From NCBI GenBank assembly GCA_034189655.1, contig JAXHUE010000003.1:35969-99968 (forward strand): 64,000 bases of DNA. The letters are read 5' to 3'. This document shows, piece after piece, positions 4,517-31,615 of this stretch. A program made the position numbers and the translations under genes. This stretch comes from Chloroflexota bacterium. Lineage in GTDB: Bacteria > Chloroflexota > Dehalococcoidia > E44-bin15. Under the pieces are notes generated by a model. That model saw only the letters and a list, made by a program, of their open reading frames with translations, was not told the origin of the DNA and made no database searches. Position 1 is the stretch's first letter; each line of letters opens with the position of its first letter.

Positions 4517-5104
4517 GTGCCCACCAGGATAGGCGAGGTCATCGAGGCATCCACTGCGGAGTTCGTCGCCCAGTGCTACGAGCTGCACCGTCCGCCCCCC
4601 CTGGGCAGCCTGGTGCGCACCCGCGAGGGGGAGGTGGAGGTCTACGGCGTGGTGAGCCATGCCCAGACCCAGGGCATCGAGCCGGGGCGGCGCCCCATCG
4701 CCAGGGGCCGTGAAGAGGCCGTCGAGGAGGACATCTATCGCGCAAGCCCGCAGCTTGCCCGGCTGCTGCGCACCGATTTCAGCGCCCTCGTGGTGGGCCA
4801 CCGCGACGGCGAGCGCATCAGGCACTACCTGCCCCCGCGGCCGGCCATGCTCCACGGGTTCGTCCATGTCTGTGAGCGGGCGGAGGTCGCCGAGTTCAGC
4901 CAGTCCCTGGACTTCTTGAGCATCCTGGTCGGCGCCTGCGGGCAGGGGAGTGGCGATGAGCTGGTGGCCGCCGCGGTGCGCCAGGCGGCGGCGGCGCACG
5001 GCGACCCCCGCTCCTTCCTGGTGCGTGCCGGCAAGGAGCTCGCCGTGCTCCTGGGCGGCGACAGCCAGCGCCTGGGCATTATCTTGAGGAGGATAAAGGG
5101 GTGA
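4517..5104 (+). CDS. Hypothetical protein with HAS-barrel-like N-terminus (no ATPase domain), operonic between nurA and herA
   Basis: GTG at 4517 is preceded by GGGAGAGAGAG. N-terminus RIGEVIEASTAEFVAQCYELHRPPPLGSLVRT..EVEVYGVVSHAQT resembles the N-terminal HAS barrel of HerA-type proteins. The stop overlaps the herA GTG start (GTGA), suggesting translational coupling. Confidence 0.5.
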   Translation: MPTRIGEVIEASTAEFVAQCYELHRPPPLGSLVRTREGEVEVYGVVSHAQTQGIEPGRRPIARGREEAVEEDIYRASPQLARLLRTDFSALVVGHRDGERIRHYLPPRPAMLHGFVHVCERAEVAEFSQSLDFLSILVGACGQGSGDELVAAAVRQAAAAHGDPRSFLVRAGKELAVLLGGDSQRLGIILRRIKG

Positions 5105-6744
5105 GCCAGGGGAGTGATTTACATAATGAGTCACAGCGGCGGCTCGGCGTCGTCGTCGAGGGCTCGCTCACCAGGGGCGTCGAGGTCAGGCTCGACGGCG
5201 GCGTCTCCATCGAGGACATCGCCGTGGGCCGCTACGTCACCATCGAGGGGGAGAGGCGCCGCTTCTTCGGCATGATCACCGATGCCGAGCTGGGCACCAT
5301 CGACCCGCGGCTGCTCACCATGCCCCCGGATATATCAGACCCCTTCATCGCCGAGGTGCTCGCCGGCACCGGCACCTACGGCCGCATCCACGTCCTGCCC
5401 GTGCTCACCATCGGCGGGGACGCCATGGGCCTCCTGGAGGGGCCGCAGCCGGTGAAGACCGTGCCCGCCCACTTCTCCGCGGTGCGCGAGGCCAGCGAGC
5501 GCGACGTGGAGCAGGTCTTCGGCGGGGTGGAGGAGCGCCAGTTCTACATCGGCACCCCGCTCGACATGGAGACCAAGGTGCGGCTCGACCCCGGGGAGCT
5601 GGTGGTGCGCTCGAGCGGCGTCTTCGGCAAGAGCGGCACCGGCAAGACCTTCCTCGCCCGGCTGCTGCTCATCGGCATCATCCAGGAGGGCGCCGCGGTG
5701 AACCTGGTCTTCGACATGCACAGCGAGTACGGCTGGGAGGGGAGCAGCGAGGAGGGGCGAAAGGTGAAGGCACTCAAGCAACTCTTCCCCTCCAAGGTCG
5801 CCGTGTTCGCCCTCGACGAGGAAGGGGCGCGGCGGCGTAATGTCTCCACCGACTTCGTGGTGAAGATCGGCTATGACGAGGTGGAGCCCGAGGACATCGC
5901 CATGCTCCAGGAGACACTGGGCCTGAGCGAGGCCGCGGTGCAGGCCACGTACCGCCTGGCGCGGCACTACGGCGAGCGCCGCTGGCTGGAGTGCTTCCTC
6001 GACGTGGAGGGCAGGGAGGACATCGCCGCGCTGGCGCAGGGCCTGGGGGAGCACGAGGCCACCCTGGCCGCGCTGCGGCGCCGCCTCGATGTGCTGCGCC
6101 GTCTCTCGTTCCTGGTGCCCCACGCCGCAGACAACGCCATCCGTCACATACTGGAGTACCTCGACCGCGGGATGAACGTCGTCCTGGAGTTCGGGCGCTT
6201 CACCGACATCGTCGCCTACATACTGGTGGCCAACCTGCTCACCAGGCGCATCCACGAGCGCTGGCGCGAGCGCACGGAGCGGGCCATTGGCGGGGACGGG
6301 GACAAGCCGCCGCCCCTGGTCATCACCATCGAGGAGGCGCACAAGTTCCTGAGCCGGGAGCTTGCCGGGCACACCATATTCGGCACCATCGCCCGCGAGA
6401 TGAGGAAGTACAACTGCACCCTCCTGGTCATCGACCAGCGCCCCAGCGGCATCGACGAGGAGGTGATGAGCCAGATCGGCACCAAGATCACCTGCCTCCT
6501 CGACAACGAGCGCGACATAGAGAGCGTGCTCACCGGCGTCTCGGGCAAGGGGGAGCTCAGGGCGGTGCTGGCCAAGCTCGATTCACGGCAGCAGGCCCTC
6601 ATCTTCGGCCACGCCGTCCCCATGCCGGTGGTGGTGCGCACCAGGGAGTACGGCTCGGCGCAGTCCTACAGCGAGCTGGGCATCCGCGATGCCCTGGAGC
6701 GGCGCCGGCAGGCCGAGGAGGAAGGCAGAGACCTGTGGGGGTAG
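5101..6744 (+). CDS. herA: HerA-like hexameric ATPase/helicase (DUF87/FtsK-HerA superfamily)
   Basis: Walker A FGKSGTGKTFLARLL. Walker B/DEAH-like LVITIEEAHKFL. Conserved C-terminal LLVIDQRPSGIDEEVMSQIGTKI. N-terminal HAS-barrel-like region (LGVVVEGSLTRGVEVRL..VGRYVTIEGERRRFFGMI). Adjacent to the NurA-like gene. Confidence 0.75.
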   Translation: MSQGSDLHNESQRRLGVVVEGSLTRGVEVRLDGGVSIEDIAVGRYVTIEGERRRFFGMITDAELGTIDPRLLTMPPDISDPFIAEVLAGTGTYGRIHVLPVLTIGGDAMGLLEGPQPVKTVPAHFSAVREASERDVEQVFGGVEERQFYIGTPLDMETKVRLDPGELVVRSSGVFGKSGTGKTFLARLLLIGIIQEGAAVNLVFDMHSEYGWEGSSEEGRKVKALKQLFPSKVAVFALDEEGARRRNVSTDFVVKIGYDEVEPEDIAMLQETLGLSEAAVQATYRLARHYGERRWLECFLDVEGREDIAALAQGLGEHEATLAALRRRLDVLRRLSFLVPHAADNAIRHILEYLDRGMNVVLEFGRFTDIVAYILVANLLTRRIHERWRERTERAIGGDGDKPPPLVITIEEAHKFLSRELAGHTIFGTIAREMRKYNCTLLVIDQRPSGIDEEVMSQIGTKITCLLDNERDIESVLTGVSGKGELRAVLAKLDSRQQALIFGHAVPMPVVVRTREYGSAQSYSELGIRDALERRRQAEEEGRDLWG

Positions 6745-6778: not shown

Positions 6779-8251
6779 ATGGTGCCCACCACTGGCCCGA
6801 TGACACGCCGTCCCCTCGTCGAGGAGATCGATGCCCCCTCCGCACTGGAGGCCTTCTCCCTGATCAGGGGGCGTCCCCACAGCTTCTTCCTCGATAGCGG
6901 CATGGGCCGCGAGCGCCTGGGCCGCTACTCGTTCATCGGCAGCGACCCCTTCCTGGTGCTCAAGAGCTACGGCCGCGATGTCTGCCTGGTCGAGGGCTGC
7001 AACGAGACCAGGATGAGCGCCGACCCCTTCGACGTGCTGCGGGAGGTACTGTCCCGGTACGCCCTCGACCCCGGCCCCGCGCCCATCCCCTTCACCGGCG
7101 GCGCCGTGGGCTACCTCGGCTACGACCTGTGCCACTTCGTCGAGCGCCTGCCCCAGACCGCCGCCGACGACCTGGGGCTCCCCGAGCTCTACCTGGCCTT
7201 CTACGACGGTGTCATCGGCTTCGACCACCTGGAGGGGCGGTGCTACGTCGCCGCAAGCGGCCTTCCCTGTGAGGAAGAGGAGCGGCGGCTGCGCCGCGCC
7301 CGGGAGCGCCTCGACGAGCTCAAGGACATCGTGGAGCGGGCCCCGCGGCAGGGAGAGGAGCGCCCCATGGAGCACGGCCAGCCCGCGGCGACCCCTGTGT
7401 CCAGCGTCGTGCCACAGTCAAACTTCACCCACGAGGGGTATGTGCGCGCGGTCGCGGCGGCGCGGGAGTACATCTGTGCCGGCGACATCTTCCAGGTGAA
7501 CCTGTCGCAGCGGTTCCAGGCCCCGCTCGACGTCGCCCCCTTCGAGCTGTACCGGCGCCTGCGCGCCATCAACCCGGCGCCGTTTGCCAGCTACTTAAAC
7601 CTCGACGGGGTGACCATCGTCAGCGCCTCGCCGGAGCGGTTCCTCCGCACGAGCGGCGACCTGGTGGAGACCCGCCCCATCAAGGGGACGAGGCCCCGGG
7701 GGCGCACGCCGGCCCGGGACCAGGCACTGGCCTGGGAGCTGGCGCACAGCGTCAAAGACCGCGCCGAGAACGTGATGATAGTAGACCTGGAGCGCAACGA
7801 CCTGGGGCGCGTGTGCCGCTATGGGACGGTGCGGGTGAGCGAGCTGTGTGCCCTGGAGCGCTATGCCACGGTGTTCCACCTCACCTCCACGGTGGAGGGC
7901 AGGCTGCGCCACGACCGAGACCGCGTAGACCTGCTCAAGGCCACCTTCCCTGGGGGCTCGATCACCGGGGCCCCCAAGGTGCGTGCCATGGAGATCATAG
8001 ACGAGCTGGAGCCCACGCGGCGGGGGGTCTACACCGGCTCCATCGGGTATGTGGGCTTCGATGGAGAGATGGACTTGAACATCGTCATTCGCACCTTCGT
8101 GGTAGCGGGGGGAAAGGCCTACTTCCAGGTAGGAGGGGGCATCGTGTACGATTCCGACCCCGAGGCCGAGTACGTGGAGACGCTGGACAAGGCGAGGGCC
8201 CTCGTCGAGTCGCTTGGGCCCCAGCCGCTCCCGGCACCAGAGGAGAGGTGA
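6779..8251 (+). CDS. pabB: Aminodeoxychorismate synthase component I (chorismate-binding enzyme, PabB/TrpE family)
   Basis: Chorismate-binding domain motifs (NPAPFASYLNL, SASPERFLR, ETRPIKGTRPRG, FPGGSITGAPK, RGVYTGSIGY). Assigned to pab rather than trp because the partner amidotransferase and a class IV aminotransferase (ADC lyase) lie downstream. Confidence 0.75.
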   Translation: MVPTTGPMTRRPLVEEIDAPSALEAFSLIRGRPHSFFLDSGMGRERLGRYSFIGSDPFLVLKSYGRDVCLVEGCNETRMSADPFDVLREVLSRYALDPGPAPIPFTGGAVGYLGYDLCHFVERLPQTAADDLGLPELYLAFYDGVIGFDHLEGRCYVAASGLPCEEEERRLRRARERLDELKDIVERAPRQGEERPMEHGQPAATPVSSVVPQSNFTHEGYVRAVAAAREYICAGDIFQVNLSQRFQAPLDVAPFELYRRLRAINPAPFASYLNLDGVTIVSASPERFLRTSGDLVETRPIKGTRPRGRTPARDQALAWELAHSVKDRAENVMIVDLERNDLGRVCRYGTVRVSELCALERYATVFHLTSTVEGRLRHDRDRVDLLKATFPGGSITGAPKVRAMEIIDELEPTRRGVYTGSIGYVGFDGEMDLNIVIRTFVVAGGKAYFQVGGGIVYDSDPEAEYVETLDKARALVESLGPQPLPAPEER

Positions 8252-8299: not shown

Positions 8300-8328
8300 T
8301 TGACAAACGGGTGGGAATATACTATAAA
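8300..8328 (+). promoter_or_regulatory. Sigma70-like promoter for the repeat-protein gene (TTGACA - 17 nt - TATAAA)
   Basis: TTGACA at 8300-8305 and TATAAA at 8323-8328 with a 17-nt spacer, in a locally AT-rich intergenic stretch. Followed by GGAGAAGGGAGATGAGCC (RBS) and ATG at 8442. Confidence 0.6.
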
Positions 8329-8441
8329 ATAGTGCCAAGGGTGGCGGTGGGCGTGAGTATCACAGGTTCACTTTGCCTGTTTACAGTGTGTCTTGGAAAT
8401 AGGAGTGGTGAGTGGAAAAGACTGGAGAAGGGAGATGAGCC

Positions 8442-11321
8442 ATGAGAAGTAAATATCCTGGGCTCACCAGGCCGACGGCGGTGCTCATAGCGCTGGCACT
8501 GATCGCCACACTTCTCGCCATCGTTATCCCGACGACCATTGGCTCGGCGGTCAACGAGGAGTGGGCCAACGCCGTCGTCGAGGAGGCGACTGAGAGGGTG
8601 GTCAACCCCGATAACGCCCTGGGCCCCAACGATGGCACGTGCGCCACCATGAGGCGCAGCGCCGAGCTTACCCTGGACATGGGAGTCGGCGAGGAGGCGC
8701 TGGACGGCCCGGGCAACGACCTCAAAGTCTATTCCCAGGGCGGTGACTACGAGGTCTTCGTGTGGGACGGCTTCACCTGGCAGTCGCTGGGTATTGGCGC
8801 CGGCACTCAGGAGTTCGACCTGGCCGATGCCGGCGTGGCCCAGTCGCGGTACGTGAGGATTGAGAATCGCACCAAGGGTGATATATGCATCGATGCCGTA
8901 GAGGTGCTGGGCGGCGAGCCCAAGCCCAGGATAACCGCTCCTGGCTACGAGGCCGACCTCACCGGCAATACCCAGATAGTGGCCGAGGACGAGGATGATG
9001 GCAACATCACCGATTGCTGGTTCTACTACTGGTACGACCTCGACCAGGACTGCGTGGCCGATGAGGGCGAGGACACCTGGCACCTCATAGGCCACGATAG
9101 CGTTGGCGGCAATTGGAGCGTGTGGTGGGACACCGGCAACTACAGCGACTGCTGCTACATCCTGAAGGCCGTGATGGAGAACTCCAGGGGCATCCAGGGT
9201 GACAGCTACGAGCAGGGCTTCCCCCACAACGTGCAGCTCACCAACCACGACCCCCAGCCCGAGATAACCGCCCCTGATGACCAGACCCCCTGCGATGCCG
9301 CCCCGGTGAGTGGCAACGTGACCCTCACCGCGGTGGACAACAGCTTTGAGCAGGGGGCAGACGTCACAGAGTGCACGTTCGAGTACTACTACGATGAGAA
9401 CATGAACTGCGACGACGATGACGGCAACCAGTGGACCGACATCGCCGGCATGGGCGCTAGCGGTGTGGTCAAGGGTAACGGTGGCGAGGGCTACGAGTTC
9501 ACCTACGACTGGGACACCACCCAGATGCCAGACTGCTGCTACCTCCTCCGTGTCACCATGGAGGACAAGCACGGGCGTGCCAACACCACGGACCATATCA
9601 ACATCGCCCTCTCCAACCACGACCCGCAGCCCGTGTTCTTGAACCCCGGCGAGGACGACACCGTGCAGGGCACCATCCTGCTGGAGGTAGAGGACGCCAG
9701 CCTTGACCAGGGCAGCGACGTGATATGCACCACCTGGGAGTACTGCTACGCCACCGACGAAAGCCAGTGCAGCGGTGATGACTGGAACCTGATACTGCAG
9801 GACTGCGACCCCGTCGGTGACACCTGGAGGCTGTGGTGGGACACCAACCAGGTACAGGACTGCTTCTACACCATCCGCGCCACCATGGAGGATGAGCACG
9901 GCCGTATCGGGGTGAGCTACCTCCACGTCGGCGTGGGCAACGACCCGCCGGTGGTCGAGATAGAGCAGCCCTACAACAACGACCTCCTCTGTGAGGACAA
10001 CCCGGTGAGTGGCAACGTCACCGTCAGGGCCAAGGACACGCAGCAGGCCACCGACATCGAGGCCGCCACCTTCCGCTACTACTATGACACAAACCAGGAC
10101 TGCGTGGCCAACGACGGCAACTCGTGGGTGCAGTTCGGCTACGATGGGACGAAGGAGATGGTGGGCGGCAACGCCACCTTCGAGGTGAACTGGGACACGA
10201 GCCAGCTCAACGACTGCTGCTACATCGTCCGCGTCTACATATCCGACCTCCACGCGCTGAACGGCTATGACACCCTCTGCGTGGCCCTCACCAACCACAA
10301 CCCGGTGCCCGAGATCACCCAGCCCGAGGGCAACACCACCATAAGCGGCACCCAGAGGATCATCGCCAAGGACACCGGCTTTGACCTGGGCAACGACATC
10401 AACCTGCCTGGCCACGGCAACGTGACCTTTGAGTATGCCACCGCAGACCAGAACTGCCAGCAGGTGGGCCAGTGGACAGACATGGGGGCGACCGTCACCC
10501 AGGTCGGCAGCCCGCCCGACCGCACCTGGTACGTGGACTGGGACACCACCCAGGTGGAGGACTGCTTCCACCTCATCAGGGTGACCCTGGAGGACAAGCA
10601 CGGCAGAACTGGCACCACCACCATCTGCGTGGGCGTGGCCAACAACCCGCCCCAGCCGCGGATGACGGCCCCGCCTGATGCCACTCCCTGCACCGCGGGC
10701 GAGGTGAACGGGAACATCGACCTGGTGGCGGTGGACGACAAGGCCAACAGCACCGTGCAGAGCTGCGTCTTCGAGATCTGGGACGACTTCAACCAGAACT
10801 GCACCGCCGACGAGGGGAACACCACCTGGGTCGCCATCGGCTCGGGCACGCTCTCTGCGGGCAACTGGACCCTCGATTGGGACACCACTGATGTCCCCGA
10901 CGAGTGCTACCTGGTGCGGGCCAACATGACCGACATCCACGGTCTGGGCAACGTCTCCACCCACATCAACCTGTACGTGAACAACCTGCGCCCGGCGCCG
11001 TACTTCTGGTATCCGTACGACAGGTCGGACTATCCTGTGGGCGACCCCGTCAACCTCTACGTGTACGACAAGACCGGGGCCACCGATATCCACGACGCCG
11101 ATGTGTACTTCGAGTGGTGGGACCCGGTAGCGAGGGAGTGGGTCTACATAGGCACCGGCACCTCTTACTATGAGAGCTCCATGGGCATGTGGATGTGGTA
11201 CAACTACAACCTCTACTACCCCGACCGCGACTGGATAGCGGTGAGGGTGACCATGACCGACAAGGGGGCCACACCACAGTCCGGCGACGACATCGTCCAG
11301 ATTTACCGAGTGCAAGAGTAG
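8442..11321 (+). CDS. Large exported Cys-rich tandem-repeat protein (959 aa): N-terminal signal/anchor, ~125-aa beta-sandwich-like domain, then seven ~105-120-aa repeats of an unrecognised domain
   Basis: N-terminus MRSKYPGLTRPTAVLIALALIATLLAIVIP is a signal peptide or type II anchor. Seven repeats (aa ~160-270, 271-393, 394-500, 501-620, 621-735, 736-849, 850-959) share three conserved blocks: PQP(E/V)IT.P at the start, C.F.YYYD.N.(D/N)C..D(D/E)GN.W in the middle, and W.(L/V).WDT.....DCCY..R..MED.HGR at the end. The protein is acidic and N/T/D/W/Y-rich with conserved Cys pairs. The opposite-strand 997-aa ORF is a V/H/G-rich shadow. Confidence 0.7.
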   Translation: MRSKYPGLTRPTAVLIALALIATLLAIVIPTTIGSAVNEEWANAVVEEATERVVNPDNALGPNDGTCATMRRSAELTLDMGVGEEALDGPGNDLKVYSQGGDYEVFVWDGFTWQSLGIGAGTQEFDLADAGVAQSRYVRIENRTKGDICIDAVEVLGGEPKPRITAPGYEADLTGNTQIVAEDEDDGNITDCWFYYWYDLDQDCVADEGEDTWHLIGHDSVGGNWSVWWDTGNYSDCCYILKAVMENSRGIQGDSYEQGFPHNVQLTNHDPQPEITAPDDQTPCDAAPVSGNVTLTAVDNSFEQGADVTECTFEYYYDENMNCDDDDGNQWTDIAGMGASGVVKGNGGEGYEFTYDWDTTQMPDCCYLLRVTMEDKHGRANTTDHINIALSNHDPQPVFLNPGEDDTVQGTILLEVEDASLDQGSDVICTTWEYCYATDESQCSGDDWNLILQDCDPVGDTWRLWWDTNQVQDCFYTIRATMEDEHGRIGVSYLHVGVGNDPPVVEIEQPYNNDLLCEDNPVSGNVTVRAKDTQQATDIEAATFRYYYDTNQDCVANDGNSWVQFGYDGTKEMVGGNATFEVNWDTSQLNDCCYIVRVYISDLHALNGYDTLCVALTNHNPVPEITQPEGNTTISGTQRIIAKDTGFDLGNDINLPGHGNVTFEYATADQNCQQVGQWTDMGATVTQVGSPPDRTWYVDWDTTQVEDCFHLIRVTLEDKHGRTGTTTICVGVANNPPQPRMTAPPDATPCTAGEVNGNIDLVAVDDKANSTVQSCVFEIWDDFNQNCTADEGNTTWVAIGSGTLSAGNWTLDWDTTDVPDECYLVRANMTDIHGLGNVSTHINLYVNNLRPAPYFWYPYDRSDYPVGDPVNLYVYDKTGATDIHDADVYFEWWDPVAREWVYIGTGTSYYESSMGMWMWYNYNLYYPDRDWIAVRVTMTDKGATPQSGDDIVQIYRVQE
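8919..11318 (+). repeat. In-frame coding tandem repeat array (7 diverged units of ~320-370 bp)
   Basis: DNA-level reflection of the seven protein repeats. Units are diverged (protein identity roughly 30-50%), so this is not a recent satellite expansion. Confidence 0.6.
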
Positions 11322-11354: not shown

Positions 11355-11389
11355 GGGGGGCGTCCTTCAATGGGCGCCCCCCTTTCGTT
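11355..11389 (+). terminator. Rho-independent terminator after the repeat-protein gene
   Basis: GGGGGGCG - 11-nt loop - CGCCCCCC followed by TTTCGTT, 34 nt downstream of the stop. Confidence 0.55.
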
Positions 11390-11484
11390 GGGGTGGTGTG
11401 CCCCTCCCGTCCCAGCCTTGCCCCCTCCCGCCGTAGCTGCTACAATCTGTGTGGGGGGAGTGCCTTTATAAAGGGGAGGGGGCC

Positions 11485-12087
11485 TTGGTCATCATCATCG
11501 ATAACTACGACTCCTTCTGCTACAACCTGGCCCAGTACATCGGGGAGCTGGGCTGGGAGCCCATGGTGTGCCGCAACGACCAGCTCTCACTGGTGGAGAT
11601 CGCGGCCCTGGCCCCGTCCCACATCGTGATCTCTCCCGGGCCGGGCACCCCGCTCGATGCCGGCATCTCCAACGCAGTGATACGCCGCTTTGCCGGCCAC
11701 ATCCCCATACTGGGGGTGTGCCTGGGACACCAGTGCATCGGCCACTGCTTCGGCGGGCACATAGTGCGCACCGTGCCGGTGCACGGCAAGTCCTCCCTCA
11801 TCTACCACGACGGCAAGACGCTGTACCGCGGCCTGGCCAACCCCTTCGAGGCCGGGCGCTACCACTCCCTGGCCGTCGCCCCGTGGGGCCTGCCCGCGGA
11901 GCTTGAGCTCTCGGCGCAGACCGAGACCGGGGAGGTCATGGGGGTGCGCCACCGCCAGTTCGTGGTCGAGGGCATCCAGTTCCACCCCGAGTCCATCCTC
12001 ACCGCCTGTGGCCACGATGTGCTGCGTGCCTTCCTGGGCATAGAGCATCCGCGGTGGCAGGCCGCCCTGGGGGGGCCCCATGGCTAG
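11485..12087 (+). CDS. pabA: Aminodeoxychorismate/anthranilate synthase component II (class I glutamine amidotransferase)
   Basis: LVIIIDNYDSFCYNLAQY N-terminus and GVCLGHQCIG catalytic Cys motif, with HPES near the C-terminus. Likely TTG start at 11485, 4 nt after GGGGAGGGGG; the ORF-track start at 11449 adds 12 non-homologous residues. Confidence 0.8.
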   Translation: MVIIIDNYDSFCYNLAQYIGELGWEPMVCRNDQLSLVEIAALAPSHIVISPGPGTPLDAGISNAVIRRFAGHIPILGVCLGHQCIGHCFGGHIVRTVPVHGKSSLIYHDGKTLYRGLANPFEAGRYHSLAVAPWGLPAELELSAQTETGEVMGVRHRQFVVEGIQFHPESILTACGHDVLRAFLGIEHPRWQAALGGPHG

Positions 12088-12931
12088 CTGGGTGTACGTA
12101 GACGGGGCCCTGGTGCCCGGCGACCAGGCCGCCGTCTCCCCCCTCGACCGCGGCCTGCTCTACGGCTACGGCCTGTTCGAGACCGTGCGCGCCTACGAGG
12201 GGCGCTGCTTCCGCCTGGGGCGGCACCTGGAGCGGCTCATGGCAGGTGCCGAGCGGCTCGCCCTCGCCGCCGCGCTCGACCGCGATGGCCTGGAGCGGGC
12301 GGTGTATCGCACCATGGAGGCAAACGGCCTCCGCGATGCCCGGGTGCGGCTCACCGTCACCGCCGGCGTAGGCGAGCGGGGGCTCTCCCCACCGCTGTCG
12401 GGGGCTGCCACCGTCATCGTAGTCGCCGAGGGGCTGGCCGCGCCGGGCCACGACGAGGGGGTGAGCGCCGCCATCGTCGGTGCGAGGAGGAACAGCGCCT
12501 CGCCGCTCGCCGGGATAAAGTCGTTGAACTACCTGGAGGCCCTGGTGGCCCACGCCCAGGCCCTGGCCCAGGGTGCCCAGCAGGCCATCATGTTAAACGA
12601 GCGCGGCCACGTCGCCGAGGGCAGCACCAGCAACATCTTCCTGGTCTCCGCAGGGAGACTGCTCACCCCGGCGCCGGCCTGTGGCATCCTCTGTGGCATA
12701 ACCAGGGAGGCCGTGCTGGAGTGTGCCGCCGACCTCGGCATCGAGGCCGCCGAGGTGGAGCTATCCCCGGAGGCCCTCTTCGCCGCCGACGAGGTCTTCC
12801 TCACCAGCTCCATAGTCGAGCTTGCGCCCGTGGCCCGCGTGGACGGCCGGGCCATCGGCGACGGCGGGCGTGGCAAGGTCACCTCCCTGCTCGCCGCCGC
12901 CTACCGGGAGCTGGTGCGGCGGGAGAGATGA
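12080..12931 (+). CDS. pabC: Aminodeoxychorismate lyase (class IV PLP aminotransferase fold)
   Basis: 283 aa, class IV aminotransferase features (YGYGLFETVRAY, EGSTSNIFLV, GITR). Size and operon context with pabA (8-nt overlap) favour ADC lyase over IlvE. Confidence 0.65.
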   Translation: MASWVYVDGALVPGDQAAVSPLDRGLLYGYGLFETVRAYEGRCFRLGRHLERLMAGAERLALAAALDRDGLERAVYRTMEANGLRDARVRLTVTAGVGERGLSPPLSGAATVIVVAEGLAAPGHDEGVSAAIVGARRNSASPLAGIKSLNYLEALVAHAQALAQGAQQAIMLNERGHVAEGSTSNIFLVSAGRLLTPAPACGILCGITREAVLECAADLGIEAAEVELSPEALFAADEVFLTSSIVELAPVARVDGRAIGDGGRGKVTSLLAAAYRELVRRER

Positions 12932-14171: not shown

Positions 14172-14209
14172 TTGACCGCCCTGGGTGAGGCGTGCTATCA
14201 TGCTATAAT
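14172..14209 (+). promoter_or_regulatory. Candidate sigma70 promoter upstream of ftsY (TTGACC - 18 nt - TATCAT, with a second TATAAT 2 nt downstream)
   Basis: Sequence match only, located 20-57 nt upstream of the ftsY ATG. Confidence 0.4.
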
Positions 14210-14228
14210 CTCTGCTGTCGGAGTGACG

Positions 14229-15149
14229 ATGGGCGAGCGGGAACAGATGGAGAAGGGGGTGAAGCGCTCCCGGGAGGGCTGGTTCGGCCGGGTGATGCGC
14301 CTCTTCGACCGTGCCGCCATCGACCAGGGGCTGTGGGACGAGCTGGAGGAGCTGCTCATCGCCGCCGACGTCGGGGTGGCCACCAGCGCCAGGCTGCTGG
14401 GGCGGGTGCAGGAGCGGGTGGGCCGGGAGCGGCTCCAGGAGGCCTCCCAGGTCAGGGCCGTGCTGCGCCAGGAGATGGTGGCCATGCTGCGGGTGGACGG
14501 TGCCCCTTCCGGGGGGGGCGTCAGGCTGGCGCCGTCGCCGCCCACGGTGGTGCTGGTGGTGGGGGTCAACGGGGTGGGCAAGACGCTCTCCATCGCCAAG
14601 CTGGCCCACATGCTGAAAGGGGAGGGGAGGCGGGTGGTGCTCGCCGCCGCCGACACATTCCGCGCCGCGGCCGTCGAGCAGCTCCAGGTGCTGGGCAGGC
14701 GCATCGGGGTGGAGGTCATCGCCCAGGGGCCCGGCGCCGACCCCGGGGCCGTGGTGTACGACAGCCTGGAGGCGGCGAGGGCGCGCGGCGCCGACGTGGT
14801 AATCGTCGATACCGCGGGCCGGCTGCACACCAAGTTCAACCTGATGGAGGAGCTCAAGAAGATCAGGCGGGTGGCCTCTCGCAGCGACCCCGAGGCCCCC
14901 CACGAGGTGTTCCTGGTGCTCGACGCCACCACCGGGCAGAACGGCCTGCTCCAGGCGCGGCGCTTCACCGAGGCGGTGGAGGTCACCGGCGTCTTCCTCA
15001 CCAAGCTCGATGGCACTGCCAAGGGGGGCATCGTGCTCGCCATATGCGACGAGCTCAAGGTGCCCATACGCTTCATCGGAACCGGCGAGTCGGTGGCAGA
15101 CATCGCCCCCTTCGACGCCGACTCGTTTGTCGAGGTGCTCTCGTCGTGA
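14229..15149 (+). CDS. ftsY: Signal recognition particle receptor FtsY (short form, NG domain only)
   Basis: [15 protein letters not shown] (G1), DTAGRLH (G3), [10 protein letters not shown] (G4). ~306 aa. Confidence 0.9.
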
Positions 15150-17509
15150 GCGGCGTGACCTTCGCCTCGATGTGGTGGCTCACGGTCGAGCTCCTGGGGC
15201 TCATCGCCCTGCCGCTCACCCTGGTGGTGTTCAAGCGCCTCCCCGACAGGGGCTATGCCTTCAGCAAGGCGCTGGCCATACTGCTGGTCTCTTTTATCTT
15301 GTGGCTCCTGGCCTATGCCCACATCCTGCCCAACACCTGGTGGGCCATCATACTCATCATAGCCGCGGGTGCTATAGGCTCCCTGGTGCTGGCGGTGCGC
15401 CGTCGCCGCGAGCTCGCCGAGTTCTTCAGGCGGGAGCGCACCATCATCATCGCCACCGAGGCCGTGTTCCTGCTCGCCTTCGTCGCCTATCTCGCGATAC
15501 GCGCCTTCAACCCGGACATCCTCTTCGGCGAAAAGCCCATGGACTTCGCCTTCATGAACGGCATCTTGAGGAGCACCTACTTTCCCCCCATCGACCCGTG
15601 GCTTGCCGGCTACAGCATCAGCTACTACTACGGCGGCTACCAGATAATGGCCATGCTCACCATGCTTACCGGCGTGCCCGCGGCGGTGTCGTTCAACCTC
15701 TCCCTGGCACTGGTCTTCGCCCTGACCACCGTCGGCGCCTTCAGCGTGGTCTACAACCTGGTACGCATGGGCAGGGGTGGGGTCAGGGCGGCGGTGGGGA
15801 TGGGCCTGGTCGCCGCCGGCCTGCTTTTAGTCCTGGGCAACCTGGTGGGGGTGCTGGAGATGCTGCATGCCCACGGGTTCGGCAGCGCCGGGTTCTGGGA
15901 GTGGGTGGGCATCGCCGGGCTGGACCACCCCTATAGCGGCGTGACCTGGTACCCCAACGAGCACTGGTGGTGGTGGCGCTCGACGCGGCTGATAAACACC
16001 CTGTCCCCCGGCGTCAGCAACGGTCTGGACTACACCATCACGGAGTTCCCCGCCTTCAGCTTCCTCTTCGCCGACCTCCACCCCCACCTCATGGCGCTGC
16101 CCTTCTCCCTGCTCACCATGGCGATGTGTCTGGAGCTCATGGTGTCGGCGCAGTCGCCGGGGGTGGCCTGGTTCAAGGCCAACTGGCCCCGCTTCCTGGT
16201 CTTTGCCATCGCCCTGGGGTCGCTCGGCTTCATCAATACCTGGGACATCACCACCTATAGCCTGCTCTTCGCACTGGCCGCGCTCATCGGGGGCTACCTG
16301 GCCTGGGGGCGGATGAGCCTCGGCCTGCTCAAGGACGTGGCCCTGTTCGTCGCTGCCCTCGTTGCCTGTGCCTTCGTGCTCTACCTCCCCTTCTACATCG
16401 GGCTCGACACCCAGGTCCAGGGCATCGGACTGGTGGGCGATATCGACACCCAGCCGCACCACTTCTTCCTCTTCTGGGGGGTCCTGCTGTTCATCACCGT
16501 GTCCTTCGTGGTGGCCCAGTCGTGGGGCGCGCTCAAGGAGGGCCTGCCGTCGTGGGGGTATGTGCTCCTGGCGGTGGCGGTGCCCGTCCTGCCGTTTGTC
16601 ATATGGGCCGTGGCCAGCCAGGCCGGCGGTGTGGGCCTCCTCGCCGCGATGGGCAAGCTGTGGCACGTGCTTCCCTTAATAATAGTGCTCATACTGGCCC
16701 TCCTGGTCATCGTGAAGAGGGCGCAGCGCGTCGTGGCCAGCGACGACGGGGACGGCGGTGAGGAGCGGGCCTCCATCTTCGCCATGGTGCTCCTGTTCAC
16801 CGGCTTCCTCCTCGTCATGGGCTGCGAGCTCTTCCTGGTGAAGGACTTCTTCTATCCCTGGCGCATGAACACCATGTTCAAGCTGTACTACATGGCGTGG
16901 CTGGTGCTCGCCATCTCAGCGGCCTATGGCCTCTACTGGATCGCGGTGCACTGGCGGCCGGCCTCACTCGCTGCCATGGTAGGTCGCGCCACCTGGTGGG
17001 TGGTCTTGGGCTTCCTCATCCTGGGCAGCCTCATCTACCCGGTGGCGGCCTCCATCACGATGTACGATTTCAACCGCTCGCCCACGCTCAATGGCCTGGC
17101 CTTCGTGGAGAGCGCCCGTCCATCGGAGTACGAGGCCATCGCCTGGCTCAACAGCGATGTCGAGGGGGCGCCGGTCATCGTGGAGGCCACCGGCGGGTAC
17201 TTCACCGACTACTTCCGCATATCGGCGCGCACCGGGCTGCCCACCATCCTGGGCTGTCCCGGGCACGAGCGCCAGTGGCGTGGCGGGGACGAGCTCTTCG
17301 TCGGCCGCGAGGCAGACATCGATGCCATCTACGAGGGCGAGGACATGGCCCAGGTCGAGGCCCTCTTCCAGGAGTACGATGTCACCTACGTCTACGTGGG
17401 CCACCTGGAGCGGGAGCAGTACGGTGAGGCAGTGGCCGACCGCTTCGCCGGCTTCATGGACGTGGCCTTCGCCAACGAGGGCGTCACCATATACCAGGTG
17501 AGGGAGTAG
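15146..17509 (+). CDS. DUF2298 / TIGR03662 (Chlor_Arch_YYY) family integral membrane protein
   Basis: Polytopic membrane protein of ~790 aa with the hallmark [10 protein letters not shown] triple-Tyr motif. GTG at 15146 overlaps the ftsY stop. The ORF-track 14192 start is an artefact of an open frame overlapping ftsY. Confidence 0.7.
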
Positions 17510-17511
17510 CG

Positions 17512-19263
17512 GTGGAGAGGGTGAAGGCGTGGGCCGTGCGCTGGGCGCGCCCCCTGCTCAACTGGGAGGTTGCGGCATACGTCTTTCTAGCGGTGGTGGC
17601 GCTGGGGATGCACCTGTGGGCCCTGGACGCCCGCGCCTTCCAGTACGATGAGACCCTGCACGCCTTCTATAGCTGGAAGCTGTATACCGGGGAGAGCTAC
17701 CAGCACAGCCCCATGATGCACGGCCCCTTCCAGTTCTACGGCACCGCGGCGTTGTTCCACCTCTTCGGCGATAGCGATGTTACGGCGCGCCTCCTCCCCG
17801 CCCTCTTCGGCACCGCGCTGGTGGCGCTGCCGTACCTTCTGCGTCGCCAGATGGGCCGCTGGGGGGCCATGGCCGCTGCTGTCCTGCTGGCCTTCTCCCC
17901 CACGCTGCTCTACTTCGGGCGCTTTGCCCGCAACGACATCTACATCGTGTTCTGGACGCTGCTCCTGGTGGTGTGCCTGTGGCGCTACATCGACGAGGGC
18001 AAGTCGCGCTACCTGTACATCGGGGCCGCCGCCTTGAGCTTGAGCTTCTGCACCAAGGAGGTGAGCTGGATCACCACCGGCATCATCGGCCTCTTCCTCC
18101 TCATCTGGGCCGGCCGTGAGCTCGTCGGCCGGGTGCGGCGCCGTGTCGACCTGAAGGCCCTCTCGCCACCCGCCGACTACCTGATCGTCGTCGGCACCCT
18201 CTCCCTGCCCCTGTTCGCCGCCTTCTGCCAGCTCATCCCCGGCGTGGACATCGATGGCGGGGCGGTGTGGCAGAAGGCGCTGGTGGTGGGGATACTCTTC
18301 GCGGTATCGCTGGCCGTCGGGCTACGCTGGGACTGGCGGCGCTGGTCGATCGCGGCCATCATCTTCTACGGCATCTTCTGCCTGTTCTACTCGTCGTTCT
18401 TCTCCAACGTAGATGGCCTGGCCAGCGGGATATGGGGCTCGGTGGACTACTGGCTGGCCAACCGCGACGCCCCGCGCATCGTGCAGCCCCTGTTCTACTA
18501 CCCCATGGTGCTGGCCACGTACGAGTTCCTGCCCCTGCTCTTCGGCCTGGTCGGCGGGGTGTACTACGCGATAAAGGGGGACGCCTTCTCCCGCTTCCTG
18601 GTGTACTGGGCGGCGATGGCCCTCATCCTCCAGGTGTGGTCCGGGGAGAACACCGCCTGGCTCTCCGTCCACATCGCCCTGCCCCTCATCCTGCTCGCCG
18701 CGATGTTCATCGGCCGCGCACTGGCCGGAGGCTGGCCCGGGCGCTGGGCGCGGGTGGTGCCCGCCGCCGTCGTCCTGGCGCTTGCCGTCGTCTTCCCCTT
18801 CAGCGTGCACGTCGCCCTCCAGGCGAGCTACAATGTGAGCGACGAGCCGCCGCAGATGCTGGTCTACGCCGGCATGAGCCACGAGATGCGCCAGGTCGTG
18901 GACCAGATAGAGGGGCTGGCCGCAGACAGCGGCAAGGGGACAGGGTTGAGGATAAGCGTCGATAACCCCCTCTACTGGGACTGGGCGTGGTACATCAGGG
19001 ACTACGACGTGCAGTGGCTGTACGCCACCGACCTGGTCCCCGACGGGGACGTGCTGCTGCTGGCCCCGGAGAACGAGGCCGCCTTCGAGCCCCACCTGGG
19101 CGGCTACGGCGAGGGGCAGCACTTCCACGAGCGTATCTGGTTCCCCGAGGAGTACCGCGACCACGGCATCGGGTGGTGGTGGCGCTACTTCTTGAGCAAG
19201 GAGACCGAGGGCCCCTACTGGTCGAGCGAGAGCATCGTCTACGTCGCCCAGGGGGTGCCGTGA
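17512..19263 (+). CDS. TIGR03663-family GT-C-fold membrane glycosyltransferase-like protein (PMT/ArnT-like, 2-TM-rich, 583 aa)
   Basis: N-terminal region with ...DETLHAFYSWKLYTGESYQHSPMMHGPFQFY, typical of GT39/ArnT-like dolichyl-phosphate-mannose transferases. The family is characteristically adjacent to TIGR03662. Confidence 0.65.
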   Translation: MERVKAWAVRWARPLLNWEVAAYVFLAVVALGMHLWALDARAFQYDETLHAFYSWKLYTGESYQHSPMMHGPFQFYGTAALFHLFGDSDVTARLLPALFGTALVALPYLLRRQMGRWGAMAAAVLLAFSPTLLYFGRFARNDIYIVFWTLLLVVCLWRYIDEGKSRYLYIGAAALSLSFCTKEVSWITTGIIGLFLLIWAGRELVGRVRRRVDLKALSPPADYLIVVGTLSLPLFAAFCQLIPGVDIDGGAVWQKALVVGILFAVSLAVGLRWDWRRWSIAAIIFYGIFCLFYSSFFSNVDGLASGIWGSVDYWLANRDAPRIVQPLFYYPMVLATYEFLPLLFGLVGGVYYAIKGDAFSRFLVYWAAMALILQVWSGENTAWLSVHIALPLILLAAMFIGRALAGGWPGRWARVVPAAVVLALAVVFPFSVHVALQASYNVSDEPPQMLVYAGMSHEMRQVVDQIEGLAADSGKGTGLRISVDNPLYWDWAWYIRDYDVQWLYATDLVPDGDVLLLAPENEAAFEPHLGGYGEGQHFHERIWFPEEYRDHGIGWWWRYFLSKETEGPYWSSESIVYVAQGVP

Positions 19264-24468: not shown

Positions 24469-27400
24469 TCACGCCCGCTCCACGCGCACCGCGGCCACCT
24501 TGAGCTCTGGTATCTTGGCCACCGGGTCCAGGCCTGGGTTGGTGACGATATTGGTACGGCTCTCGGTGAAGTGGAAGCTCATGGAGACCACCCCCGGCGG
24601 CGAGCCATCGGTCACGCGGGCGTGAGCGAAGACCTCCCCCCGCCGCGAGGCAACGCGCACCCTGTCGCCGCCGCCTATGCCCAGCCTCTCGGCGTCCGCG
24701 GGGTTGATCTCCACCAGCTCCTGCCCCCGTATCTGGTTTAAGCCGGCCACGCGCCTGGTCATGGTGCCGGTGTGGTACTGGTTGAGCAGGCGCTCCGTGG
24801 TGAGCACCAGGGGGTAGTCGCTGCTGGGCTCCTCCAGGGGCGGCCGGTAGGTGAGCGGGATGAAGCGGCCCAGGCCGCGGGAGAAGAGCTGGGTGTGGAG
24901 GATGGGCGTCCCCGGGTGGTCGTCGAAGGGGCAGGGCCAGGCCAGGCCCCCCTCCTCCAGCCGCTGGTAGGAGATGCCGCCGTAGGCCGGGGAGAGCCCG
25001 GCGATCTCGTCGAAGACCTGCGAGGGGTGGGAGAAGTCGAAGCCCCCGGCCCCCATGCGCTGGGCGATGCGGCACACTATCTGCCAGTCGGGCAGGGCCT
25101 CTCCCACCGGGTCGATGGCCCGGCGCACCCGCTGCACGCGGCGCTCGGTGTTGGTGAAGGTGCCGTCCTTCTCGGCGAAGCTCGCTGCCGGCAGCACCAC
25201 GTCGGCGAGCTGGGCGGTCTCGCTCAAGAAGATGTCCTGCACCACCAGGAAGTCCAGGTTCTTCAAGGCCTGCTCCACGTGGGTGGCGTCGGGCTCACTC
25301 AAGAGCGGGTTCTCTCCCACCAGGTAGATGGCGCGCACCTCGCCGCGGTAGGCGGCATCTACCATCTCGGTGAGGGTGAGACCGGGCGCGGGGTTTAGCG
25401 TCACATCCCAGGCCGACTCGAACTTCACCTGGAGGTTGGGGTCGGCCACGCCCTGGTAGCCAGGGTAGACGTTGGGCAGGGCGCCCATGTCACAGGCCCC
25501 CTGCACGTTGTTCTGCCCGCGGAGGGGGTTCACCCCCGTCGAGGGGCGGCCCACGTTGCCGGTGAGCATTGCCAGGTTGGCGGTGGCGATCACGTTATCG
25601 GTGCCGTGGGAGTGCTGGGTGATGCCCATGGCGTAGAGGATGGTGGCCGGGCTGCCCTCGGCGTAGAGGCGGGCGGCCTCGGCGACGCGCTCCTGGGGCA
25701 CGCCGGTGAGCTGCTCCACTCGCTCTGCGTCGAACCACTCGAGCGACTCCCGGAACTCGGCATAGTTCTCGCAGCGCTCCTCGATGAACTGCTTGTCGAT
25801 CAGGCCCTGCTCCACGATGACCCGCATCATCCCCATGAGCAGTGCGACGTCGCTCCCCGGCCGCTGCTGCAGCCAGACGGTGGCGAAGCGGCACAGGTCG
25901 ATGTGGCGCGGGTTGGCCACGATGAGAGCGGCCCCCCTCCTCACCGCGTCCTTTATCTCGAGGCCGATGATGGGGTGGCTCGCCGTGGTATTGGTGCCGA
26001 TGGCGAAGATACAGCGGGCCTGGCCGATCTCGGCGATGGAGTTGGTCATGGCCCCGCTGCCGAAGCTCTGGGCCAGCCCGGAGACGCTGGGGGCGTGGCA
26101 CAGGCGGGCGCAGTGGTCGACGTTGTTGGTGCCCATCGCGGCACGGGCGAACTTCTGCAAGAGGTAGTTCTCCTCGTTGGTGCAGCGCGCCGAGGCGATC
26201 AGGGCAAACCTCTCGCCCCGGTACTGGGGGAGCCTGCTGGCGATGAGCTCCAGGGCCTCGTCCCACGAGGCCGGCACCAGCCCCCCTGCTTTCCTGACGA
26301 GGGGGGTGGTGAGCCTCTCGGGGTGGCTCACGAAGTCGGCGATGCCGAAGCGGCCCTTGACGCATGTCTTGCCCCGGTTCACCGGGCTCTCCGGGTCGCC
26401 GCGCACGTCGACGATGGTGTTGCCGACGACGCCCAGGTACAGGCTACAGCCCACGCCGCAGTAGGGGCAGACGGTCTTCACCTCGGCCAGTGGCGGCCGG
26501 CTCCCCTTGGACACCAGCGCCCCCACCGGGCAGCTGGCGATGCACAGGCCGCACGACTCGCAGGTGGTATCGGCCAGGGAGCGGGCCCCAGGCGGCACTG
26601 CCACCCGGTAGGCGAAGCTCCACGCCCCCACGCCCTGCACGGAGAGGCAGGTGCGGGCACAGCGGGCGCACATGATGCACTTATTGGCGTCGATCTCCAC
26701 GAAGGGGTGGGAGCTGTCCACGGGATAGTGGTAGCCTGCCTCCCTGGCGAGCGAGGGGGAGACCCCGTAGTCAGCGGCGAGGTGGCGCAGGGTGCAGCTC
26801 TCCACGGCGCCGCAGCCGCAGGCAAGGCAGCGCTGCGCCTCCTTCTGTGCCAGGTCCTGGGTGTAGCCGCGCTCTATCTCCTGGAAGTTGCCCTGTCTCT
26901 CGTCGGGGCGGAGCCGGGGCATGGCGCGCCGCGGCTGCCGCTCTATGGTGGCGAACTCCTCGCCCCCCAGCTCATCGAGCTCGCCCTTGCGCCAGTTGAA
27001 GGGCTTCGTGGCATCGGCGAGCGGCTCCCCGCGCAGGTAGCGGTCGATGGAGATGGCCGCCTTTCGACCCGCGGCCATGGCGTCCACGGCGCGCGCCGGC
27101 CCGGTGACGGCATCGCCGCCGGCAAAGACCCCCTCGATGTCGGTCTGGAGCGTCTCCTCGTCGGCCACGATGACGTCGCCCCTGCCTATCTGGAGGCCGT
27201 CGGCGCTGAAGGAGATGTCGGGGCCCTGCCCGATGGCGGCGATCACCGAGTCCACGGGCACGGTGAACTCGGAGCCGGGGATGGGCTCGGGGCGGGGGCG
27301 CCCGCTCGCGTCGGGCTCGCCCAGGGCCATGCGGGTACAGCTCAGGCTGGCCACCCGGCCGTTGCGGCCGTTCACCGTGGTCGGCGCCGCCAGGAAGTGG

Positions 27401-28536
27401 AGCCTGATCCCCTCCTCCTCGGCCTCCTCAACCTCCCACTCGCTGGCCGGCATCTCGGCGCGAGAGCGGCGGTAGACGATGGTGACCTCCTCGGCGCCCA
27501 TGCGCAGCGCGGTGCGGGCGGCGTCGATGGCGGTGTTGCCGCCCCCGACGACCGCTACCCGCCGCCCCACCTCCATGGGCTGGCCCAGGGCGCAGGCGCG
27601 GAGGAAATCGGTGCCCGGCAGCACCCCCTCCAGCTCCTCCCCCTCCACCCTCATGCGCTGGCTCTTGTGGGCGCCGATGGCGAGGAAGCAGGCGTCGTAG
27701 CCCTCCTGGAGCAGGCCCTGGAGGGTGATGTCCCGGCCCAGGGCGCACCCCGTCCTGATGTCGACGCCCATCTGGGCGATGGCCGCTATCTCCCGGTCGA
27801 GGATATCCTTGGGCAGGCGGTAGTCCGGTATCCCGTAGCGCAGCATCCCCCCCGGCTGGGGCAGGGCCTCGAAGACGACGACGGCGTGCCCCATGCGCGC
27901 CAGGTAGAAGGCGCAGGCCAGCCCCGCCGGCCCCGCGCCGACCACGGCCACGCGGCGGCCGCTGTCCGGCCCCCGGGGCGGGACGTACATAGGCTCCGAG
28001 GAGAACAGGTCATAGTCGGCGGCGGCGCGCTTTAGGTGGCAGATGGCCAGGGGCTCGTCCACCAGGTTACGGCGGCACGCCTCCTCGCAGGGGTGGGGGC
28101 ACACCCTGCCCAGGACGGCGGGCATGGGCACCCGCTCCTTGATGAGGGCGACGGCGTCCCGCAGGCGCCCCCTGGCGATCAAGTGTATGTAGCCCTGGAC
28201 GTCTATCCCCGCGGGGCAGGCCAGCTCACAGGGGGCGGTGCAGTCGCCGTAGTGGGAGGCCAGGAGCTCCTCCAGGCGGCGCTTCCTGGCGCTGCGCACC
28301 CTCTCGCTGTCGGTCTGCACCGTCATGCCCGGCCAGATGGTGGTGGCGCAGCTGGGCACCATGCCGTGACCGGCCACCTCGACGGTGCATATCAGGCAGC
28401 CGCCCAGCGGCTCCAGGTGGTCGTCGTGGCACAGGGTGGGGATGGGGATGCCGCTCGCGCGGCAGACCTCCAGGATGGTCTCGTGGGCCTCGGCCCGTAG
28501 CTCTCTCCCGTTTACGGTAATGCTTACCTCGGTCAC
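24469..28536 (-). CDS. fdhA: Formate dehydrogenase catalytic (alpha) subunit fused to N-terminal 2Fe-2S ferredoxin and GltD-like NAD(P)H/FAD domain (1355 aa), Cys-type (non-seleno)
   Basis: N-term 2Fe-2S (CHDDHLEPLGGCLICTV). GltD-like domain (RRVAVVGAGPAGLACAFYLARMGH). MopB N-terminal 4Fe-4S (CPYCGVGCS). Fdh active-site region NVDHCARLCHAPSVSGL with Cys at the Sec/Cys position and AMGITQHSHGTDN. Long opposite-strand ORF (25606..28035) is a shadow. Confidence 0.8.
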   Translation of the reverse strand: MTEVSITVNGRELRAEAHETILEVCRASGIPIPTLCHDDHLEPLGGCLICTVEVAGHGMVPSCATTIWPGMTVQTDSERVRSARKRRLEELLASHYGDCTAPCELACPAGIDVQGYIHLIARGRLRDAVALIKERVPMPAVLGRVCPHPCEEACRRNLVDEPLAICHLKRAAADYDLFSSEPMYVPPRGPDSGRRVAVVGAGPAGLACAFYLARMGHAVVVFEALPQPGGMLRYGIPDYRLPKDILDREIAAIAQMGVDIRTGCALGRDITLQGLLQEGYDACFLAIGAHKSQRMRVEGEELEGVLPGTDFLRACALGQPMEVGRRVAVVGGGNTAIDAARTALRMGAEEVTIVYRRSRAEMPASEWEVEEAEEEGIRLHFLAAPTTVNGRNGRVASLSCTRMALGEPDASGRPRPEPIPGSEFTVPVDSVIAAIGQGPDISFSADGLQIGRGDVIVADEETLQTDIEGVFAGGDAVTGPARAVDAMAAGRKAAISIDRYLRGEPLADATKPFNWRKGELDELGGEEFATIERQPRRAMPRLRPDERQGNFQEIERGYTQDLAQKEAQRCLACGCGAVESCTLRHLAADYGVSPSLAREAGYHYPVDSSHPFVEIDANKCIMCARCARTCLSVQGVGAWSFAYRVAVPPGARSLADTTCESCGLCIASCPVGALVSKGSRPPLAEVKTVCPYCGVGCSLYLGVVGNTIVDVRGDPESPVNRGKTCVKGRFGIADFVSHPERLTTPLVRKAGGLVPASWDEALELIASRLPQYRGERFALIASARCTNEENYLLQKFARAAMGTNNVDHCARLCHAPSVSGLAQSFGSGAMTNSIAEIGQARCIFAIGTNTTASHPIIGLEIKDAVRRGAALIVANPRHIDLCRFATVWLQQRPGSDVALLMGMMRVIVEQGLIDKQFIEERCENYAEFRESLEWFDAERVEQLTGVPQERVAEAARLYAEGSPATILYAMGITQHSHGTDNVIATANLAMLTGNVGRPSTGVNPLRGQNNVQGACDMGALPNVYPGYQGVADPNLQVKFESAWDVTLNPAPGLTLTEMVDAAYRGEVRAIYLVGENPLLSEPDATHVEQALKNLDFLVVQDIFLSETAQLADVVLPAASFAEKDGTFTNTERRVQRVRRAIDPVGEALPDWQIVCRIAQRMGAGGFDFSHPSQVFDEIAGLSPAYGGISYQRLEEGGLAWPCPFDDHPGTPILHTQLFSRGLGRFIPLTYRPPLEEPSSDYPLVLTTERLLNQYHTGTMTRRVAGLNQIRGQELVEINPADAERLGIGGGDRVRVASRRGEVFAHARVTDGSPPGVVSMSFHFTESRTNIVTNPGLDPVAKIPELKVAAVRVERA

Positions 28537-31596: not shown

Positions 31597-31615
31597 CGAG
31601 AGAGGCAACCTGGCC

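Follow-up and report, generated by a model that had tools for sequence, protein, structure and literature searches.

Here we describe a gene for a large, repetitive and probably exported surface protein in a 64,000-nucleotide (nt) stretch of DNA from a Chloroflexota bacterium of the class Dehalococcoidia (assembly GCA_034189655.1, contig JAXHUE010000003.1, positions 35,969 to 99,968 of the forward strand). The whole stretch is referred to as the window, and all coordinates are positions within it. The open reading frame (ORF; 8442..11321, + strand) starts with ATG and encodes a protein of 959 residues (aa) and ~103 kDa, whose mature form has an isoelectric point of about 4.05 and which contains 159 Asp and Glu residues against 41 Lys and Arg residues. 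It is flanked by pabB (6779-8251) upstream and by pabA (11449-12087) and pabC (12080-12931) downstream (Pfam labels). In an independent assembly (Logan SRR24907505) the gene is 99% identical, also encodes 959 aa and has the same context; 5 synonymous and 5 nonsynonymous substitutions separate the strains, too few for inference on selection, and the frame is intact in both.

A sigma-70-type promoter is predicted at 8300..8328 (+), with TTGACA at 8300-8305, a 17-nt spacer and TATAAA at 8323-8328. It was read by eye; a consensus scan missed the promoter because the -10 hexamer ends in A. The TTGACA-N17-TATAAA/TATATC block is kept upstream of the genes of an orthologue (P0002) and its paralogue (P0010) (alignment A6), even though the two proteins are merely 35-36% identical to that of the window. 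The leader of about 110 nt ends with a Shine-Dalgarno-like GGGAG (8430..8434, +), 7 nt 5' of the ATG, which is represented by AGGA or GGAG in the orthologues; no Rfam family matched the gene or its long 5' leader. A strong intrinsic terminator is predicted at 11355..11392 (+; also delimited as 11355-11382), where a stem of 11 bp, 10 of them G-C, is followed by TTTCGTT. A promoter and a terminator of its own, both predicted from sequence, make the surface-protein gene a separate transcription unit. Another promoter-like site (TTGCCC-N17-TACAAT with TG, 11418-11446) lies 5' of pabA.

The G + C content of the gene is lower (0.63 vs 0.67) because the protein is rich in Asp, Asn, Thr and Tyr; the G + C content at third codon positions (0.88) matches that of the neighbouring genes (0.90-0.94). 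Recent horizontal transfer, judged by composition, was rejected on account of this value and the native codon usage. An antisense ORF of 997 aa that spans the whole gene (8322..11315, -) is an unsupported by-product of the high G + C content, since the homologues and the domain structure belong to the + frame. On reading the protein sequence for haem and iron-sulfur motifs, no CxxCH haem motif was seen.

An earlier inspection of the same DNA (the sequence-only reading) had proposed an exported, Cys-rich protein with an N-terminal domain of ~125 aa and seven tandem repeats of ~110 aa, which share three conserved blocks and of which the last is degenerate. This layout was confirmed. Residues 1-35 (8442..8546, +) form a predicted Sec signal peptide or N-terminal signal anchor with a basic n-region, a hydrophobic core of ~22 residues (aa 11-33) and the sequence G-S-A before V36; the core is the sole hydrophobic segment of the protein (Kyte-Doolittle), and the arrangement is kept in P0002 and P0010. 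The N-terminal domain (aa 36-159, ~124 aa; 8547..8918, +) is distinct from the repeats. It has no Pfam match, and a comparison of its profile with the sequences in the PDB was also empty. Its structure model is a beta-jelly-roll that resembles discoidin-type modules and carbohydrate-binding modules (CBMs), the latter being the best structural matches; the predicted local distance difference test (pLDDT) score of 67 indicates moderate confidence. Sequence relatives of the domain are very few: P0002, P0010, a membrane-anchored metagenomic protein of 210 aa (P0154), a protein of Thorarchaeota (P0165) and a PEP-CTERM protein of 186 aa (P0166). This orphan jelly-roll module thus comes to notice as one lacking a curated family, and it may merit a family of its own.

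The repeat units were delimited by landmark motifs, MAFFT alignment and scans with hidden Markov models (HMMs). Repeat 1 (R1; aa 160-270; 8919..9251) has 4 Cys and the acidic loop DLDQDCVADE, R2 (aa 271-394; 9252..9623) has 5 Cys and the loop DENMNCDDDD, and R3 (aa 395-502; 9624..9947) has 5 Cys, its Cys dyad being reduced to DCF. R4 (aa 503-620; 9948..10301) again has 5 Cys, with the loop DTNQDCVAND, whereas R5 (aa 621-736; 10302..10649) has 3 Cys and DCF at the dyad, and R6 (aa 737-850; 10650..10991) has 4 Cys, DEC at the dyad and the loop DFNQNCTADE. R7 (aa 851-959; 10992..11321, including the stop codon) is a Cys-free, aromatic-rich and degenerate Ig-like domain; all units are on the + strand. 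An HMM built only from the repeats of other proteins matched R1-R6 at independent E values of 1e-25 to 5e-40 (R1, 2.9e-25; R3, 1.4e-27; R4, 4e-34; R5, 3.5e-29; R6, 2.7e-30) and R7 at 8e-4 over almost its full length (model positions 4-103), from which it follows that the array is real and that R7 is degenerate. Pairwise identity among the seven repeats is 18-47% (18-30% for R7 against the others). R1-R6 contain 26 of the 28 Cys residues of the protein (3-5 each) and the N-terminal domain contains the other two; R7 has none. The three blocks, PxPxIT.P, F.YYYD.N.C..DDG..W and W...WDT....DCCY..R..M.D.HG, can be recognised in both repeat alignments, A1 and A2.

Neither the whole protein nor single repeats nor the repeat profile had a match at threshold in Pfam, NCBIfam or the PDB sequences, and in this sense the domain is indeed unrecognised, as the sequence-only reading had it. 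The direct scores also weigh against an assignment to the Pfam family Big_7 (PF17957): the whole protein reached 9.1 bits (E 2.7; gathering threshold, 24.1 bits), and the best single-repeat match to Big_7, that of R4, had E 0.0035 and also missed the gathering score. A word-indexed protein search returned only four relatives, namely the 99% identical strain variant, P0002 (a 1144-aa orthologue with 35% identity from a metagenome-assembled genome (MAG) of Chloroflexota) and two cohesin/dockerin proteins with two repeat copies each. An exhaustive HMM search with profile A2 (17 repeats) retrieved 4757 proteins at E<=1e-3, of which 1088 had E<=1e-10 and 81 had E<=1e-30. Giant proteins with 10-49 matched stretches each are frequent among them. 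Profile A2 and Big_7, the latter above its gathering score, align on the same residues in P0035 (514-590), P0042 (259-334) and P0048 (465-546), with identical starts for both profiles. A Big_7 match (best E 4.9e-23) was found in 23 of 29 randomly sampled relatives without the Cys residues, and alignment of A2 with this set by hhalign gave a probability of 99.5% (E 2e-22, 98 columns). The consensus of the broad family reads P...IT.P..G..VSG.VTI.A.A.D...V.F.Y...WT.IG.D...Y...WDTT.L.DG.Y.LRA.ATD..GNT...V.VDN.

The repeat is therefore not a new domain, because the profile retrieves thousands of proteins whose matched instances are Big_7 and because hhalign connects the two profiles directly; we are highly confident that the repeats belong, as divergent members, to the Big_7-type Ig-like domains. 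The predicted fold of R2, the repeat chosen for modelling, is an Ig-like (E-set) beta-sandwich. The model matched the module of a Thermotoga GH5 mannanase (6tn6, score 11.4), the Fn3-like modules of CbhA (3pdd/3pdg, 10.1), the BIg domain of CelAly (9kvu, 10.1; 23% identity) and SiiE (2yn3, 9.1), and Foldseek returned generic Ig matches only. The earlier guess of an Ig-like beta-sandwich was thus right, and the suggestion of a possibly novel fold has to be abandoned. A confident match to an established domain family, which that reading itself had named as the result that would overturn novelty, is given by Big_7. The repeats represent a subfamily of Big_7 that carries Cys residues and an expanded loop, in an architecture that is common; neither the fold nor the kind of system is new.

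Two features set the subfamily apart. In the D-G-x-Y turn before strand F, Gly is present in 274 of 311 domains of the non-Cys type, whereas in the Cys subtype Cys-Cys replaces this Gly and the next residue; R1-R6 have Cys or Glu in this column, as D-C-C/F-Y/H or D-E-C-Y. The loop after strand C ('F.Y') has grown by ~8 acidic, Cys-containing residues to YYYD.NC.C..DDG..W. Its general form is D-x-[DN]-x-[DNQ]-C-x-x-[DNE]-[DE]-G-N (also written DxNxDCxxDDGN), and the motif up to [DE] is present in R1, R2, R4 and R6; presumably this loop resembles the DxDxDG-type or EF-hand-like Ca2+ loops, for which a spacing of D-x-[DN]-x-[DN]-G/C-x-x-D would be expected. The Cys form accounts for 35 of 346 near-full-length domains in the top 153 proteins (about 10%). 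D-C-C-Y is carried by P0002 and P0010 of the Chloroflexota MAG SVP26, by a protein of ANME-1/Methanophagales with a cohesin and two repeats (PXF51487.1), by a protein of Archaeoglobus sulfaticallidus (WP_015591511.1; named 'Ig-like domain-containing protein' by NCBI) and by a number of metagenomic proteins that also have DUF11, cohesin or dockerin domains or a C-terminal anchor. The orthologues and the other carriers score 17-22 bits with Big_7, so that the Pfam model, with its threshold of 24.1 bits, systematically just misses the subtype. A subfamily model would annotate the Cys-subtype surface proteins of Dehalococcoidia and anaerobic archaea that now escape Pfam Big_7.

In an Ig sandwich of textbook connectivity, and with the strand order of the model, the insert in the C-C' loop and the E-F turn with the Cys dyad would come to lie at the same, C-terminal pole of the domain, facing the next one. 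A disulfide between loop and dyad is geometrically plausible in such a model. A separate observation concerns the N-terminal domain, where the positions of C67 and C149 are both occupied by Tyr in P0002 and in P0010; this co-variation of C/C with Y/Y is a small, independent hint at structural Cys pairs.

The locus is a variable one. Among relatives, pabB adjoins pabA-pabC with gaps of <=15 nt in the nearest GTDB representatives (L003, L004 and L006) and likewise in L058, which is more distant, whereas the pabB-pabA-pabC operon is interrupted by the surface-protein gene in the window and in L001. The orthologue of L001 is absent from the locus closest to it, L006 (HerA 86%). Because pabB abuts pabA in relatives, L006 included, the gene is a patchy accessory insertion, whose distribution reflects either repeated loss or transfer by recombination. 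Identity between the window and L001 is 78% for HerA and 67% for PabB, and only 35% for the surface protein. The repeats of the window protein and P0002 are roughly colinear (R2-r2, R3-r3, R5-r5 and R6-r7 at 41-52%, with 52% for the pair of R6 and repeat 7 of P0002). Such rapid divergence is typical for exposed surface proteins. A scan of the GTDB genomes with the whole surface protein found no relative, and the same scan with HerA found Dehalococcoidia MAGs at 76-82% identity, which placed the window in this class and supplied the synteny. A fast-evolving accessory surface gene within the pabBAC operon is documented for one lineage of Dehalococcoidia.

Other features of these loci were recorded alongside. 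The HerA-type ATPase (HAS-barrel and DUF87; 5101-6744, +) is encoded just 5' of pabB, a linkage kept in the closest relatives only, and in L001 (1-1125, 3459-5096) a gene for a NurA nuclease is found farther 5', at a distance of a few genes. In MAG SVP26, P0002 is followed by repeats resembling repetitive extragenic palindromic (REP) elements or miniature inverted-repeat transposable elements (MITEs), and then by the paralogue P0010 (68% identical). The repeats (L083 35-264, 300-770; L001 10816-11018) consist of a 100-nt unit present 2.3 times and of hairpin-forming ctctcccctcaagggagaggg elements, and the assembly break falls within them. Elsewhere in the window, RACo (corrinoid activation; 36526-38478, -) and the beta subunit of acetyl-CoA synthase/carbon monoxide dehydrogenase (ACS/CODH; 41039-43264, -) represent a Wood-Ljungdahl cluster, whose presence identifies the host as an anaerobe. 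A fusion protein of 1354 aa (24469-28536, -) that combines 2Fe-2S, GltD-like Fer4_20 and Pyr_redox_2, 4Fe-4S and molybdopterin oxidoreductase domains looks like a formate dehydrogenase joined to an NAD(P)H-binding module. The adjacent mutS (28760-31312, +) and mutL (31424-33307, +) are ordinary housekeeping genes.

As to function, we favour, with some reservation, a Sec-exported, acidic multi-Ig protein with Big_7-type repeats that acts as a fibrillar adhesin or surface spacer; for the adhesin/stalk mechanism by itself, we regard the case as evenly balanced. The predicted Sec-dependent export, for which the single N-terminal hydrophobic segment and the excess of acidic over basic residues speak, would deliver a protein consisting of a signal or anchor, a jelly-roll module, six Cys-bearing Ig-like domains and a degenerate Ig-like domain. 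At about 4 nm per Ig domain, the seven tandem Ig-like repeats, an arrangement expected of the stalk of a fibrillar adhesin, would make up an elongated stalk about 25-30 nm long. Loop and dyad Cys residues at the same pole of a domain would probably pair as disulfide staples, and Ca2+ may bind to the acidic loops and make the junctions between domains stiffer, by analogy with adhesins of the cadherin and SiiE types. The jelly-roll domain, the aromatic-rich R7 or both might recognise a ligand, which would most likely be a glycan or the surface of another cell. The protein as a whole would then work as a surface spacer or in the manner of a fibrillar adhesin. The Cys subtype has relatives in cohesin/dockerin proteins, DUF11 proteins and membrane-anchored archaeal surface proteins, which speaks for this view.

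Several points weigh against this proposal. Pfam, NCBIfam and hydrophobicity analysis revealed no C-terminal transmembrane segment, no sortase signal and no anchor to a wall or S-layer, and the hydrophobic segment at the N-terminus is the only candidate for a surface anchor. Cleavage of the signal peptide would mean that the protein is released and not displayed; if the N-terminus serves as an anchor, the model would place the CBM-like module beside the membrane, which is odd for an adhesive tip. The model of the N-terminal domain is itself of only moderate confidence. Co-occurrence of the Cys residues among the 35 Cys-type domains is weak (maximum correlation 0.41), with no strong pairing signal, the number of Cys per repeat is often odd (3, 5, 5, 5), and extracellular disulfides are less certain in an anaerobic host.

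The protein could instead be a structural envelope or S-layer(-associated) glycoprotein, an acidic, N-anchored and possibly glycosylated rod that spaces or builds a proteinaceous wall. Dehalococcoidia are monoderms with S-layers, and peptidoglycan is absent in some of them (PMC10284905), which together with the very acidic composition of the protein and the archaeal surface proteins among the closest relatives of its domain subtype agrees with such a role. The protein has 16 N-X-S/T sequons, an enrichment over the 7.8 +/- 2.5 of shuffled sequences, and genes for GT-C-type membrane proteins are located 3-8 kb downstream (a DUF2298 protein of 1105 aa, 14192-17509, +; a PMT_2/PMT-type glycosyltransferase, 17512-19263, +); both are sequence-level hints at protein glycosylation, although several sequons occupy conserved motif positions (GNVT, GNWS) and are maybe merely structural. 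We nevertheless consider a wall component rather unlikely, since L003, L004 and L006, which are the nearest relatives, lack the gene at this locus and since the protein evolves much faster than its neighbours, unlike a core component of the wall. The cell-surface part of the earlier proposal of an adhesin or S-layer-associated protein remains plausible, whereas its S-layer part found no direct support, as no SLH or other S-layer or anchoring domain was detected with Pfam and NCBIfam.

An analogy with cellulosome-like systems and with the accessory modules of glycoside hydrolases leads to a secreted scaffold that binds polysaccharides or particles after cleavage of the signal, with the jelly roll as CBM and the Ig-like repeats as linkers. 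The CBMs as the best matches of the N-terminal domain, the cohesin/dockerin domains in the distant Cys-subtype relatives P0003, P0004, P0159 and P0163, and the small-x-small motif G-S-A after the hydrophobic core would all suit this arrangement, which we judge improbable all the same: Pfam detected no catalytic, cohesin or dockerin domain in the protein, and no glycoside hydrolase genes adjoin its gene. That the repeat is a previously unknown, metal- or disulfide-stabilised domain, possibly with a new fold, is scarcely credible, for although the curated libraries make no call at threshold and the CC dyad and acidic Cys loop are unusual for Big_7, the profile-level homology is clear, modelling predicts nothing but an ordinary Ig-like sandwich, all carriers of the subtype give sub-threshold Big_7 scores and the Archaeoglobus relative already bears an Ig-like name.

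One further reading is speculative and, in our estimate, quite doubtful: the Big_7 form with D-C-C-Y and acidic Cys loop might be an anaerobe-specific, disulfide- and Ca2+-stapled module that is horizontally exchanged and, linked to the jelly roll, provides contact in consortia from a hypervariable locus in the pab operon. If so, its hosts would be sediment and hydrothermal archaea (ANME-1, Archaeoglobus) and Dehalococcoidia, the Cys module and the orphan jelly roll might mediate cell-cell contact in syntrophic consortia, and the gene would be a hypervariable 'contact' locus.

Among known systems, the Ca2+-stiffened fibrillar adhesins, represented by the BIg domains of Salmonella SiiE (PDB 2yn3), share tandem Ig-like domains with acidic, Asp/Asn-rich polar loops, and both are predicted to be elongated. 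The window protein differs in that it is far smaller and has a predicted N-terminal Sec signal or anchor but no type I secretion signal; SiiE lacks Cys staples, and Ca2+ binding is putative in the window protein. Unlike components of the cellulosome type, it contains neither cohesin nor dockerin (Pfam). The ANME-1 protein (PXF51487.1) and the Archaeoglobus protein (WP_015591511.1), which are of cohesin/dockerin or PGF type, have the same Cys subtype (YYYDxNCNxxADDG..W ... WDT..DCCY), but they contain only 1-3 copies in the context of cohesin, dockerin, DUF11 or C-terminal anchors, and lack the N-terminal jelly-roll module. Big_7 ('Bacterial Ig domain') is found as tandem copies in giant surface proteins of bacteria, and chitinases and other glycoside hydrolases have it as an accessory module. 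From its typical members, the window repeats are set apart by scores below the gathering threshold, by the Cys-Cys dyad in place of the near-invariant Gly of D-G-x-Y, by the acidic loop of ~8 residues with one or two Cys after strand C, and by a domain length of ~110 aa against 70 positions in the Pfam model, which omits the last strands. Common to both are the pattern PxxxIxxPxxGxxVxGxVxIxAxAxD ... VxFxY ... W ... WDT ... D-x-x-Y-x-L-R-A ... D ... G ... VxVxN, the Ig-like sandwich (predicted here) and the use of tandem domains as a stalk.

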